The notes under the pieces are model-generated. The model did no database searches, was not told the origin of the DNA, and saw only the letters and a list, made by a program, of their open reading frames with translations. A stretch of 33,534 bases of DNA from a virus. Lineage: Duplodnaviria > Heunggongvirae > Uroviricota > Caudoviricetes. The position numbers and the translations under genes were made by a program. Shown here in pieces: positions 11,367 to 15,904 of this stretch. Where the stretch lies: IMG/VR virus record IMGVR_UViG_2558860170_000005. One strand, given 5' to 3'. Numbering within the stretch: the first letter of the stretch is position 1; every line of letters starts with the position of its first letter.

Positions 11367-11472
11367 GATGCCTCCAGGTTTATAAGTACAAACGGTTATA
11401 TCAACATAGAGACAAAAGGTGATGCTGCCAACTTACTGATTTAGTGTATGATGGTGTTTTTGAGGTGCTCCA

Positions 11473-11748
11473 GTGGCTTCTGTTTCTATCAGCTGTCCCT
11501 CCTGTTCAGCTACTGACGGGGTGGTGCGTAACGGCAAAAGCACTGCCGGACATCAGCGCTATCTCTGCTCTCACTGCCGTAAAACATGGCAACTGCAGTT
11601 CACTTACACCGCTTCCCAACCCGGTACGCACCAGAAAATCATTGATATGGCCATGAATGGCGTTGGATGCCGGGCAACTGCACGCATTATGGGCGTTGGC
11701 CTCAACACGATTTTACGTCACTTAAAAAACTCAGGCCGCAGTCGGTAA
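11473..11748 (+). CDS. insA: IS1 InsA
   Basis: Same as copy 1. Confidence 0.95.
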
Positions 11749-12170
11749 CCTCGCGCATACAGCCGGGCAGTGACGTCATCGTCTGCGCGGAAATGGACGA
11801 ACAGTGGGGCTATGTCGGGGCTAAATCGCGCCAGCGCTGGCTGTTTTACGCGTATGACAGTCTCCGGAAGACGGTTGTTGCGCACGTATTCGGTGAACGC
11901 ACTATGGCGACGCTGGGGCGTCTTATGAGCCTGCTGTCACCCTTTGACGTGGTGATATGGATGACGGATGGCTGGCCGCTGTATGAATCCCGCCTGAAGG
12001 GAAAGCTGCACGTAATCAGCAAGCGATATACGCAGCGAATTGAGCGGCATAACCTGAATCTGAGGCAGCACCTGGCACGGCTGGGACGGAAGTCGCTGTC
12101 GTTCTCAAAATCGGTGGAGCTGCATGACAAAGTCATCGGGCATTATCTGAACATAAAACACTATCAATAA
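11667..12170 (+). CDS. insB: IS1 InsB
   Basis: Same as copy 1. Confidence 0.95.
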
Positions 12171-12277
12171 GTTGGAGTCATTACCAAAAAAACCGCCGAA
12201 ACGGGTTAAGTGCGGGTGCGTTGAGGATGCCTGACACATCAAAGGTGGCGGGAGATTACTCTCCCGCCTGGTCACTC

Positions 12278-12433
12278 TTACTCTCTAGATTCGTAGTCTA
12301 CGAAAACAGCGACCTCCGTCTGGCCGATTCGGATTCGTACCTCGCAGAGGTCTTTCCTCGTTACCAGTGCCGTCACAATGACGGTTAAACAGATGACGAT
12401 CAGGGCGATTAACATCGCCTTTTGCTGCTTCAT
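12278..12433 (-). CDS. hok: Hok-family type I toxin
   Basis: MKQQKAMLIALIVICLTVIVTALVTRKDLCEVRIRIGQTEVAVF… single TM; near-identical to HokD/RelF as I recall it. Confidence 0.85.
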   Translation of the reverse strand: MKQQKAMLIALIVICLTVIVTALVTRKDLCEVRIRIGQTEVAVFVDYESRE

Positions 12434-12490
12434 AGCCTGCTTCTCCTTGCCTTTCGGCACGTAAGAGGCTAACCTACATTTGTGAGACAT
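12278..12490 (-). CDS. mok: Mok-like overlapping reading frame
   Basis: 70-codon frame starting upstream of and co-terminal with hok, as in hok/mok/sok loci. Confidence 0.5.
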   Translation of the reverse strand: MSHKCRLASYVPKGKEKQAMKQQKAMLIALIVICLTVIVTALVTRKDLCEVRIRIGQTEVAVFVDYESRE

Positions 12491-12775
12491 AGATTGGGCC
12501 TCAGATTAATGTTAAGCGTCTTGCAGGACGCGTAATGTTAACTGGGGCTTTTCTCTGTCTGCCTTACAGTGACATACCCGAGGCAGACAGCCTCAAGCAC
12601 CCGCAGCAATCTTACCGACACCGATAAGAAAACGCTATTTTTTATTGCCAGCACCATCTATCCAGGCTAGTTTATCTGCGTCAGAACGGCGCAATGCGCT
12701 CGCCTGAGATACGTTTACTTGCCATGGTAACAACAGGTAACGGCAATTGCTGTTTCTGTTTTGTTTCCTTCAAAA

Positions 12776-12806
12776 ACCCCGGACCATCAATCCGGGGTTT
12801 TTGTTT
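12776..12806. terminator. Bidirectional intrinsic terminator
   Basis: CCCCGGA-ccatcaa-TCCGGGG flanked by an A-run upstream and TTTTTGTTTG downstream. Confidence 0.55.
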
Positions 12807-12807
12807 G

Positions 12808-12891
12808 TTAACCCCAACGGCAAATCGAATACACCACCAGCGCCACCGCCATCGCAATTCCTACCGTGGTGAATGCCTCAGGCCAGGTCAT
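12808..12891 (-). CDS. Small hydrophobic peptide (27 aa), translationally coupled to the upstream gene
   Basis: MTWPEAFTTVGIAMAVALVVYSICRWG; start overlaps the DUF551 gene stop (ATGA); followed by the terminator. Not in the ORF track because of its size. Confidence 0.4.
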   Translation of the reverse strand: MTWPEAFTTVGIAMAVALVVYSICRWG

Positions 12892-13253
12892 TGATTCACC
12901 TCCTGCGGTGGTTCCGGTAGCGGCATCCAGTGAGTTGAGCTCTCTACTTCAACGCCGTCTTTGTCCACAAAAGCCATCTTATTCCCGCCACGAGTGGGGC
13001 AAAAAACCTTATCCCAGGAACCGGGGAATACATTCCCGAGATCATCGAGAAGAATCACATCGCAATATTCAGCAGGAACTGCATCACTACAGCTTATCCA
13101 GCCAGCCGGAGCTACCGGAGAGTTGCCAGCCTTACGCATGGCCATTTCCACGATTTCAACCATATCTCCTGGTGGAATTTTACAAAGTTGCCCAATACAT
13201 TTCTGCTGCCTGGCATATTCGAGAATGTGCTCCAGTTTGGTTCGATTAATCAT
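12888..13253 (-). CDS. DUF551-type phage protein
   Basis: C-terminal …STHWMPLPEPPQ signature typical of DUF551. Confidence 0.65.
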   Translation of the reverse strand: MINRTKLEHILEYARQQKCIGQLCKIPPGDMVEIVEMAMRKAGNSPVAPAGWISCSDAVPAEYCDVILLDDLGNVFPGSWDKVFCPTRGGNKMAFVDKDGVEVESSTHWMPLPEPPQEVNQ

Positions 13254-14500: not shown

Positions 14501-14988
14501 TCATTACCGCCCTTTCGAGCGGTCTCCTGATGATTTGAGGGTGCAGAAATCCCTCCGGTTAAGGATTAAATTTTTAACAGTGCTAAATTTAATTATTCAG
14601 TTCTGGATTTTGTCGCCCTGCGTATCCGCGCTTTCGCGTTACGCTCAATCTGTATCAGCTTTTCTATATTTCTCCGCCTTTCCTGTTCCTCCTGGCGCAA
14701 TAGCCTTACATCATCTGCCAGTCTGGTTTCTCTTTTTGCCACAGAGAGCATCCAGTCAAACGGCTCCACAACCGCACCGCAGATTTTACAGCGGACCTGA
14801 CGCTCTTTTTCGTCAACCCGGACAGAGGCGTGATGGCAATATGGTCTTTCCGATGGTTCATAAAGAAAATTAACCTGATTACGTGGGTCATCCTCTTTTA
14901 CCGGAAATAAAACGATATTGCTTAACTCATCTTGGTGATGCTGCCAACTTACTGATTTAGTGTATGATGGTGTTTTTGAGGTGCTCCA

Positions 14989-15264
14989 GTGGCTTCTGTT
15001 TCTATCAGCTGTCCCTCCTGTTCAGCTACTGACGGGGTGGTGCGTAACGGCAAAAGCACTGCCGGACATCAGCGCTATCTCTGCTCTCACTGCCGTAAAA
15101 CATGGCAACTGCAGTTCACTTACACCGCTTCTCAACCCGGTACGCACCAGAAAATCATTGATATGGCCATGAATGGCGTTGGATGCCGGGCAACTGCACG
15201 CATTATGGGCGTTGGCCTCAACACGATTTTACGTCACTTAAAAAACTCAGGCCGCAGTCGGTAA
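14989..15264 (+). CDS. insA: IS1 InsA
   Basis: Same as copy 1. Confidence 0.95.
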
Positions 15265-15686
15265 CCTCGCGCATACAGCCGGGCAGTGACGTCATCGTCT
15301 GCGCGGAAATGGACGAACAGTGGGGCTATGTCGGGGCTAAATCGCGCCAGCGCTGGCTGTTTTACGCGTATGACAGTCTCCGGAAGACGGTTGTTGCGCA
15401 CGTATTCGGTGAACGCACTATGGCGACGCTGGGGCGTCTTATGAGCCTGCTGTCACCCTTTGACGTGGTGATATGGATGACGGATGGCTGGCCGCTGTAT
15501 GAATCCCGCCTGAAGGGAAAGCTGCACGTAATCAGCAAGCGATATACGCAGCGAATTGAGCGGCATAACCTGAATCTGAGGCAGCACCTGGCACGGCTGG
15601 GACGGAAGTCGCTGTCGTTCTCAAAATCGGTGGAGCTGCATGACAAAGTCATCGGGCATTATCTGAACATAAAACACTATCAATAA
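15183..15686 (+). CDS. insB: IS1 InsB
   Basis: Same as copy 1. Confidence 0.95.
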
Positions 15687-15904
15687 GTTGGAGTCATTAC
15701 CAACTCATCTTCTGGTTTTATTTCCATGCTCCTCTCCTTTGATGCGAATACCAGCGGTAATTGAAGCCTGATAGCTAATTTTACTCACAGTACCGCCTCC
15801 TGAAATTTCCCCTGATAAAACGCCAGCACGCGCTGCATAGTGAGGTAGCCTGAGTTTAACGGACACTCCTTCCTGAAATAGAATGGCATCAGAAGGAGCT
15901 AATA

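Follow-up and report, generated by a model that had tools for sequence, protein, structure and literature searches.

When a hok-type toxin gene has an insertion sequence (IS) against its downstream edge and a 27-codon open reading frame (ORF) upstream, is it still a complete toxin-antitoxin (TA) locus, has the IS silenced it, and does the small ORF belong to it? This question is raised by positions 12186-12891 of the virus record IMGVR_UViG_2558860170_000005, a stretch of 33,534 nt that was analyzed as a whole (the window; positions are counted from its first letter). The answer that we consider highly probable joins a complete hokW/sokW-type locus, an IS1 copy that is a bystander beyond its terminator, and an independent 27-codon gene. 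In all likelihood, the surrounding genome is IS-laden and of the Shigella sonnei type, and the window contains the nin-like early region of one of its lambdoid prophages, a defective one, where three independent things lie side by side. The hok/sok locus is mostly known biology, and the micropeptide family to which the 27-codon ORF belongs is the modestly novel part.

The toxin gene (12278-12433, minus strand; AUG at 12433, stop at 12278-12280) encodes a Hok protein of 51 aa, which matched Pfam HOK_GEF (PF01848) with 77.3 bits against a cut-off of 22 and PHROG 251, 'MokW-like host killing', with 111 bits; it retains C30, the conserved Cys of the Hok/Gef toxins. The ORF list placed in frame with it a mok ORF of 70 aa (12278-12490, minus strand, AUG at 12490), preceded by the Shine-Dalgarno (SD) sequence GAGG at 12499-12502 on the same strand and laid out as the annotated mokW of 933W and mokC of K-12. 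By analogy with the hokW and R1 systems, hok would be translated through mok. The Rfam family RF01794, named 'sok', was matched over its full length (model positions 1-157) at 12428-12602, with 118.1 bits (gathering score 59, E 1.3e-27). Since this match lies on the hok-sense strand and runs from the 5' end to the hok AUG, the family models the hok leader, and Sok is its exact complement; strand calls based on this 'sok antitoxin' family would come out inverted. An earlier annotation made from the letters alone (the first-pass annotation) had called a hok/mok type I toxin locus here, and the Pfam, PHROG and Rfam matches and the in-frame mok bear this out. We therefore describe 12186-12604 on the minus strand as a complete hok/mok/sok type I TA locus of the hokW/sokW type, with high confidence in its membership of the hok/sok systems.

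The RNA elements of the locus were located by folding and by alignment. Position 1 of the Rfam model aligns at 12602, and the putative start of hok transcription is placed at about this position on the minus strand, behind a -10 element TAAGAT (12609-12614, minus strand); alignment with 933W gave the same placements. Taking 12186-12604 as RNA, the minimum free energy (MFE) structure had -168.9 kcal/mol (z -6.4). In this structure, the tac element at the mRNA 5' end (GCGGGUGCUUGAGG, 12591-12604, minus strand) pairs with the fold-back inhibition (fbi) element near the 3' end (CCUCAACGCACCCGC, 12212-12226, minus strand), through 14 pairs with one bulge that join mRNA nt 1-14 to nt 379-393. The pairing is kept in 53/53 unique homologues collected. 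Covariation inside the hokW subfamily was uninformative, with tac and fbi invariant, and subfamilies were compared with one another instead: in the R1-type plasmid locus L131, tac/fbi read GGCGCUU/AAGCGCC, that is, compensatory changes are present on both sides. The 3' end of the transcription unit is an intrinsic terminator (12186-12207, minus strand), with the hairpin AACCCGUUUCGGCGG and seven U, found both in the MFE fold and in an alignment of the window with 933W and three Escherichia coli prophages.

Between hok and fbi, the fold also contained a 9-bp hairpin at 12247-12268 (minus strand), which had been described in the first-pass annotation as a terminal hairpin. The hairpin is real, and what did not hold was its position as the end of the RNA: because fbi and the terminator lie between it and IS1, it would correspond to the 3' end of the processed mRNA and not of the primary one. 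Its equivalent is the last stem-loop that the translatable hok mRNA has after 3' processing. In R1, this last stem-loop protects the truncated hok mRNA, and trimming of the 3' end back to the stem yields the translatable form (PMC9841398); the hairpin at 12247-12268 may, by analogy, protect the truncated mRNA in the same manner.

The antitoxin gene is found on the opposite strand. When the annotated sokW of 933W was mapped on the window, the Sok gene fell at 12447-12552 (plus strand), with a promoter composed of a -35 TTGCCT (12447-12452), a 17-nt spacer and a -10 TAACCT (12470-12475), both hexamers being identical in 933W. The predicted Sok RNA, at about 12482-12552 (plus strand), is colinear with the annotated sokW and overlaps the mok translation start; its fold began with an unpaired 5' tail, continued as a long hairpin and ended in a U-rich stretch, with -38.3 kcal/mol and z -6.7. 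A candidate Sok gene and fbi, which comparison with plasmid hok/sok had been proposed to locate, were thus placed through the sokW of 933W and the fold. The lack of leader elements and of a Sok-like transcript had been named beforehand as the observation that would speak against the locus; leader elements are present, and so is a candidate Sok-like gene with a promoter.

With these parts, the locus would be expected to work as follows. Pairing of the 5' tac with the 3' fbi would lock the full-length hok mRNA closed and untranslatable, and slow 3' trimming to the hairpin at 12247-12268 would expose the mok SD, so that mok translation drives hok translation. The unstable, constitutively made Sok RNA would bind the leader and lead to RNase III decay of the hok mRNA; once Sok is lost, by prophage induction or loss, Hok would enter the inner membrane.

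The closest characterized relatives are hokW/mokW/sokW of Sp5 (VT2-Sakai) and 933W, with 92.7% DNA identity to the window over the transcription unit. They share with it the Hok length, the in-frame mok, the Sok promoter hexamers, tac, fbi, the 3' hairpin, and a position directly downstream of the same 27-aa ORF. Unlike them, the window has a Hok with isoleucine instead of threonine at position 36 (T36I) and with SRE instead of SEK as last residues, about 165 bp of extra spacer with a terminator that replaces the hok -35 region, and a location in the replication-to-Q region of a defective prophage, with IS1 at the 3' edge; its terminator hairpin also differs from the one in 933W. HokW acts as a toxin, which the 71-nt sokW RNA counters with the aid of RNase III and Hfq; prophage induction removes sokW RNA, upon which HokW accumulates in the inner membrane and phage release goes up (PMC8621323). 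That Sok counters Hok toxicity is therefore experimental for the ~93%-identical hokW/sokW (PMC8621323), and is expected by analogy for the T36I allele. The hok/sok (parB) system of R1/IncF plasmids has the same end pairing of tac and fbi, mok-coupled translation, and a Sok with a 5' tail and hairpin. Only ~47 nt of its DNA, around the mok SD/hok SD region, can be aligned with the window, its tac and fbi differ in sequence with compensating changes, and its carrier is a plasmid and not a prophage; HokW is 44% identical to R1 Hok (PMC8621323). Prophage hok loci are common (prophages show an enrichment for hok genes; bioRxiv 10.1101/2025.08.07.668861), and this subtype is experimentally characterized, so the hok/sok part adds little beyond a Shigella-lineage allele that is structurally intact save for one lineage-specific substitution.

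Whether this allele is still active is a separate matter, and four observations weigh against it. The Sok promoter is a weak match to consensus; a consensus promoter scan of 12100-13000 returned zero sites; in the multiple alignment, the hok -35 region of the window variant is replaced by the spacer module; and residue 36 of Hok (codon 12326-12328) is threonine in all 51 other unique phage homologues of the variant table, so that T36I, at an otherwise threonine-only position, may alter toxicity. Because of T36I and the altered hok -35 region, the sequence leaves us with only moderate confidence that the hok allele of the window would still be active. The rival reading goes further and holds that T36I attenuates or kills the toxin, the structurally complete locus being a decaying TA system in a degrading prophage. 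It is favored by the threonine found in 51/52 unique phage hok loci, with isoleucine in the window alone, and by the distribution of the protein: the exact T36I form, present in at least 1000 contigs, is named Shigella sonnei or multispecies Shigella by its sources and thus for Shigella alone, and the T36 form, which differs at position 36 only, is named multispecies Enterobacteriaceae. The prophage of the window is, moreover, full of IS elements. Set against this, the seven residues that >80% of Hok homologues conserve do not include position 36 (bioRxiv 10.1101/2025.08.07.668861), there is no damage to the reading frame, to C30, to the UACG site at Y47 or to any of the RNA elements, and the T36I variant is kept in many genomes without further damage. 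We thus regard decay as unlikely, although it is the alternative that survives best.

The Y47 site deserves a description of its own. The Tyr47 codon UAC (12293-12295) is followed by G and lies in a 7-nt loop, CUACGAA (12290-12296), closed in the MFE fold by a 4-bp stem UAGA/UCUA (12286-12300, minus strand). The UACG context is reported as the place where TadA edits A to I in hok mRNAs, turning Tyr into Cys (bioRxiv 10.1101/2025.08.07.668861), and such editing at Tyr47 could affect toxicity via a disulfide with C30.

The second part of the question concerns the 27-codon ORF (MTWPEAFTTVGIAMAVALVVYSICRWG, 12808-12891, minus strand). Upstream of it lies a DUF551 gene of 121 aa (12888-13253, minus strand; Pfam DUF551, 70 bits), whose TGA stop overlaps the ATG of the small ORF as ATGA, exactly as the first-pass annotation had noticed when it listed a 27-aa hydrophobic peptide at this place. 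An SD sequence, AGGAGGT (12898-12904, minus strand), is found 6 nt before this ATG, inside the last codons of DUF551 (QEVNQ). The peptide would therefore be made by coupling, at about the level of the preceding gene, plus its own strong SD. Its layout comprises an N-terminal M-x-W-P-E/D-A motif, one hydrophobic helix and a C-terminal RWG, which is usually CRWG in the family.

We judge this ORF to be a genuine conserved protein-coding gene, on evidence drawn from sequence comparison. A degenerate DNA pattern in which only codons 1-7 and Gly11 were fixed matched at least 120 viral contigs; together with the loci found earlier, the matches listed amount to at least 130 occurrences, on which the counts of 59, 71 and 131 cases given below rest. 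Among the matches listed, 130/130 had an open, short hydrophobic ORF, and 121/130 were exactly 27 aa in length. As a negative control, the same pattern was run over 596 Gb of bacterial genomes and gave 47 matches, mostly chance ones and close to the number estimated for chance; those outside Escherichia/Shigella opened ORFs of arbitrary length, from 11 to 416 aa. In 59 unique 84-nt sequences, and for codons outside the constraint of the pattern, the proportion of synonymous differences (pS) was 0.37 and that of non-synonymous ones (pN) 0.125, giving a pN/pS of 0.34, while the other two sense frames had 0.99 and 2.4. Synonymous changes reached 26/37 of those possible versus 41/107 for non-synonymous changes (p = 0.013, binomial), an excess absent from the other sense frames, and internal stops were found in 0/59 of the unique sequences. 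An SD-like 4-mer was located 4-16 nt upstream in 71/71 unique contexts listed, and the start overlapped an upstream stop as ATGA in 105 and as TAATG/TGATG in 18 of the 131 cases listed. Collectively, the claim that the small ORF is coupled, hydrophobic and conserved in related prophages was upheld, including the conservation on which it had been said to stand or fall.

Two points count against this assignment. One antisense frame, which shares wobble positions with the micropeptide, had a pN/pS of 0.33, and conservation of the peptide rests mainly on tblastn matches because the N-terminal motif is itself part of the search pattern. That antisense frame has stops in 4/59 sequences, lacks a conserved start and encodes a His/Arg-rich string that runs through the terminator. 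The tblastn matches, which do not depend on the pattern, included a homologue of PhiR5_1 (MSWPDAIVTLGVVFAAAFVVFSICRWG) located after ea22 and one of BP-4795 (MNWPEAFTAVGVAIAVAFILYSLFRWG) located after DUF551, near xis/int. These points bear on a second rival reading, in which the 27 codons encode no functional peptide and serve as a recombination linker or as a coupling ORF where the act of translation is what matters, for example by retaining ribosomes on the mRNA as far as the terminator or the hok promoter. The conserved block is indeed bounded on both sides by mosaic junctions, the ORF is almost never annotated in RefSeq, none of the libraries searched has a family model for it, and the pN/pS of the antisense frame is similar. 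However, the amino acids are kept despite a pS of 0.37 versus a pN of 0.125, with an excess of synonymous alleles; distant members (59-67% identity, in contigs of 40-65% GC) retain the length, the W-P-E/D-A motif, the single hydrophobic helix and the basic/aromatic C-terminus; and the ORF also occurs inside tightly packed operons, with neither a terminator nor hok after it. A role without a functional peptide is thus quite doubtful, and a coding gene is the reading that we retain.

The product would most likely be a single-pass inner-membrane peptide. A short acidic N-terminus (MTWPEAF) is followed by ~17 hydrophobic residues and, at the C-terminus, by Arg-Trp-Gly; by the positive-inside rule this C-terminus would be cytoplasmic. 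In the homologues at the loci L014, L060, L104 and L108, in-frame ATGs located upstream lengthen the ORF to 44-45 aa, so that it overlaps the DUF551 end in another frame; the counterpart of this extension region in the window is 12892-12945 (minus strand). Such extensions are probably the source of the sporadic 'hypothetical protein' calls of 40-45 aa that fall into one cluster with the peptide. When a profile hidden Markov model of the family was searched against all short ORFs of the fetched loci, no motif-less member appeared, and only in-frame N-terminal extensions were recovered.

The gene is widespread. In a survey of 5426 complete E. coli genomes, ~1730 carried the small ORF, with up to seven copies each, and the conserved block corresponded precisely to 12805-12891 of the window, both flanks being unrelated. 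The genes upstream of the block vary, from DUF551 proteins of several lengths to four other hypothetical proteins, and their stops overlap the ATG. RefSeq leaves the small ORF unannotated at those loci, and it is likewise unannotated in 933W, where it lies between L0139 and hokW. A few GenBank records label the exact peptide a 'hypothetical', 'bacteriophage' or 'prophage' protein (e.g., AOM45384.1). Outside the lambdoid context, a 24-aa member was found between two genes of the P1-like Salmonella phage SJ46. Pfam, NCBIfam and PHROGs contained no family model for the peptide or for seven of its relatives, with only sub-threshold matches to unrelated short hydrophobic profiles; the score against KdpF (TIGR02115) was 14.7 bits, below the cut-off of 26.85. 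A full-text literature search for the peptide motif found no mention, and the supplement of the Sakai RIBOseq paper, whose files may not list sequences, did not contain the peptide. As far as these literature and family-library searches show, the M-x-W-P-E/D-A motif is undescribed. The peptide resembles regulators of the KdpF/AcrZ/MgrB type and phage 'moron' micropeptides in having ~27 residues, one helix, a coupled start at the edge of an operon and, often, no annotation, but no sequence relationship to proteins of the KdpF/AcrZ/MgrB type was found, KdpF being sub-threshold.

On these grounds, we lean towards regarding the 27-aa ORF as a member of an undescribed and very widespread family of phage single-pass membrane micropeptides, distributed in lambdoid and P1-like phages and probably also in phage contigs that differ widely in GC content, for which the site before hok is a hotspot. 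If true, the hotspot hints at a common function at the membrane, for instance in lysis timing, in exclusion or in modulating a membrane protein of the host, and the peptide would extend the short list of phage small membrane proteins with known function. Thousands of sequenced prophages of E. coli/Shigella, Shiga toxin (Stx) phages among them, carry the gene, which standard annotation (RefSeq/PGAP, PHROGs, Pfam) overlooks.

Other occurrences of similar sequences were recorded. ORFs with M-x-W-P-E-A-F/L followed by a hydrophobic helix are present in Bdellovibrionales-type genomes (L141, L169, L176) and in viral contigs of 40-65% GC (L023, L086, L089), for example MSWPEALVLIGLSLAVAWMVRDL and MNWPEAFAYVGIAFAIAWALRNI, where single matches could be due to chance; the family may be much broader than enterobacterial phages. 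The micropeptide sequence was also seen, in its 933W type, on a 431-bp contig labeled 'Xanthomonas pisi' (L145) and, in an Escherichia type, on a 369-bp contig labeled 'Acinetobacter idrijaensis' (L162), and these short contigs are most likely assembly contamination.

Does the micropeptide belong to the hok locus? The idea that it is part of that locus was not sustained: hok lies 3' of the small ORF in 65/131 loci listed, and the other half of the homologues is in hok-free contexts, where a type II TA pair or DUF4222-xis-int comes after the ORF. We conclude that the micropeptide gene forms a module of its own, placed last in accessory ea/nin-like operons, and is no component of hok/sok. The same evidence bears on a third rival reading, that the micropeptide is a membrane-damaging toxin similar to those of type I TA systems, or a lysis or exclusion helper acting with Hok. 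Its size and single hydrophobic helix resemble those generally known for type I toxins, hok is the next gene in those 65 loci, and other phages put a second hydrophobic ORF of 33 aa between it and hok. Conservation, however, stops at the borders of the ORF, the flanks being mosaic with no room for a conserved antisense RNA gene outside it, although an RNA lying wholly within the ORF is conceivable; the gene is distal in its operon and has a strong SD, unlike type I toxins, whose layout is tightly repressed; half of the copies are far from any hok; and no similarity to known toxin families was found in Pfam or NCBIfam. Since no conserved antisense partner outside the ORF travels with the micropeptide, a role as type I toxin is unlikely, and we give the toxin-or-helper reading as a whole only a slender chance against that of an independent module.

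The sequence between the two genes varies among phages. Most hok-linked loci have 188-211 nt from the small ORF to the hok AUG, with the promoter directly after the stop and without a terminator, as in 933W. The window carries a variant-specific spacer module (12615-12807) that exceeds the 933W type by ~165 bp in the multiple alignment; this variant was found in 40/5426 E. coli genomes and is unannotated there. It contains a hairpin terminator with flanking A- and T-runs (12771-12803), which had been proposed as a bidirectional terminator behind the peptide. The hairpin and both runs are present, but the terminator scan flagged the plus strand only; on the minus strand the hairpin is followed by five U if the A:U extension of the stem is left uncounted. 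Acting in both directions, this terminator would shield hok from the upstream operon, except under antitermination.

On the plus strand of the spacer, the terminator at 12771-12803 is preceded by a small hairpin (12739-12754) and a G/U-rich run (TTGCTGTTTCTGTTTTGTTTCC), an arrangement found in Hfq-type small RNAs; for such an RNA in 12615-12807, no site came out of the promoter scan, and the Rfam matches were all below threshold and driven by the terminator. Other phage contigs carry, in the interval that separates the 27-aa ORF from hok, another hydrophobic ORF of ~33 aa that is unrelated to the first, has an SD of its own and lacks a PHROG match. One such ORF is MSDDISLAMEGALAVVAVVGVYCLVVFLMDRLGN (33 aa), and another is a homologue that begins VLVLKCALAIAAVMAIYCLVIVLMDHLSD; the gap is ~385 nt in L019, L032, L045 and others, and ~463 nt in L033, L053 and L101. 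The site upstream of prophage hok thus seems to collect micropeptide genes.

The remaining part of the question is the IS next to hok. IS1 copy 2 (11418-12185, plus strand, 768 bp; insA/insB, convergent with hok) has both inverted repeats exact and matches to Pfam InsA and DDE_Tnp_IS1, and differs by 1 nt from copies 1 (1113-1880) and 3 (14934-15701). The distance of 92 bp between the hok stop and the IS1 end that had been given is exact (12186-12277). The right inverted repeat touches the U-run of the hok terminator, the last U adjoining IS1: the junction reads CGGCGGUUUUUUU followed directly by GGUAAUGAC, or, in RNA sense, AACCCGUUUCGGCGG-UUUUUUU followed by GGUAAUGACUCC. As IS1 starts past the complete terminator U-run, the hok transcription unit is uncut and retains every known cis element. 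This was confirmed by comparison with three IS1-free relatives, E. coli FDAARGOS_944 (99.6% identical across hok), Shigella flexneri SFBU1023 and E. coli ECMA0423, in which fbi, the 3' hairpin and the leader elements are identical to those of the window and the same terminator hairpin is followed by 6-8 U.

Adjacent IS elements have a known precedent, since PMC7232551, citing Pedersen and Gerdes 1999, describes K-12 hok loci as inactivated by insertion elements near the reading frames but outside them. The nearest case is K-12 hokC with IS186A, where, like in the window, the IS lies just downstream, is convergent and leaves the reading frame untouched; IS186A, however, sits 19 bp past the stop, inside the 3' untranslated region, and the IS1 of the window sits 92 bp past it, beyond fbi and the terminator. 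A lesion of the type that inactivates K-12 hokA/hokC/hokE was not found at the hok locus of the window. The proposal in the first-pass annotation that IS1 neutralizes hok, as IS150/IS186 would at K-12 hokA, hokC and hokE by disturbing the mRNA 3' end or by antisense read-through, can draw on the reported K-12 cases (PMC7232551), on the 19-bp distance of IS186A from the hokC stop codon and on an insB that is transcribed toward hok, whose terminator lacks a T-run on the plus strand so that antisense read-through is conceivable, but it is not supported and is highly improbable, given that a complete terminator hairpin with seven U precedes IS1, that fbi, the 3' hairpin and the leader are as in the IS1-free relatives, that tac-fbi pairing is still present in the fold, and that a chance neighbor is the simpler explanation in a window with a further two IS1 copies and with six ORF pairs of matching sizes (one confirmed as IS3-family). 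An IS beside hok alone does not equal inactivation; its position relative to fbi and the terminator decides. With respect to hok, IS1 is a bystander, and such adjacency is ordinary in genomes of this kind.

The history of this junction could be partly reconstructed. IS1 copy 2 lacks the 9-bp target duplication of a simple insertion, its flanks being GAGACAAAA and AAAAAAACC, and copies 1 and 3 have one. In the three IS1-free relatives, the terminator is followed by 138 nt of AT-rich DNA and then GTCTCTATG; the window keeps four of these 138 nt, and ~135 bp are gone at IS1. Because the target duplication is missing along with ~135 bp, the simplest history is that IS1 inserted and then mediated a deletion next to it, or that two nearby IS1 copies recombined. 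Swapping of flanks among the three IS1 copies was ruled out, as copies 1 and 3 have their own intact target duplications, and it follows that copy 2 alone was rearranged. IS1 would thus have landed just past the hok terminator and later lost ~135 bp of adjacent DNA, with the hok unit untouched. The junction was identical in 6/6 public genome places carrying the exact Hok protein, with 0-1 mismatches over 715 bp, and this identity in all six indicates an old, lineage-fixed arrangement and not a recent hit on an active toxin. In a genome of the same lineage (L183, CP151349.1), HTH_35 and Mu-type transposase genes lie beyond IS1 in place of the usual 70-aa/DUF1367 region, which suggests a further rearrangement at IS1 there.

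An effect of IS1 is more probably sought on the other side. IS1 interrupts the route from the early operon to the downstream 70-aa ORF, DUF1367, YbcO and the DUF1133/Q-like antiterminator, and polarity on these early genes would be a likelier consequence than any on hok. The prophage backbone of the window contains DnaC-like, DUF1376, HNH, DUF551, DUF1367, YbcO and Q-like genes and is interrupted at several places. Besides the three near-identical IS1 copies, which are 0-1 nt apart, a pair of ORFs of 100 and 272 aa at 2266-3422 was assigned by Pfam to an IS3-family transposase; five further ORF pairs of the same sizes are present in the window, the Pfam scan having covered the pair at 2266-3422 only. 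Such an IS load in a 33.5-kb window is typical of Shigella.

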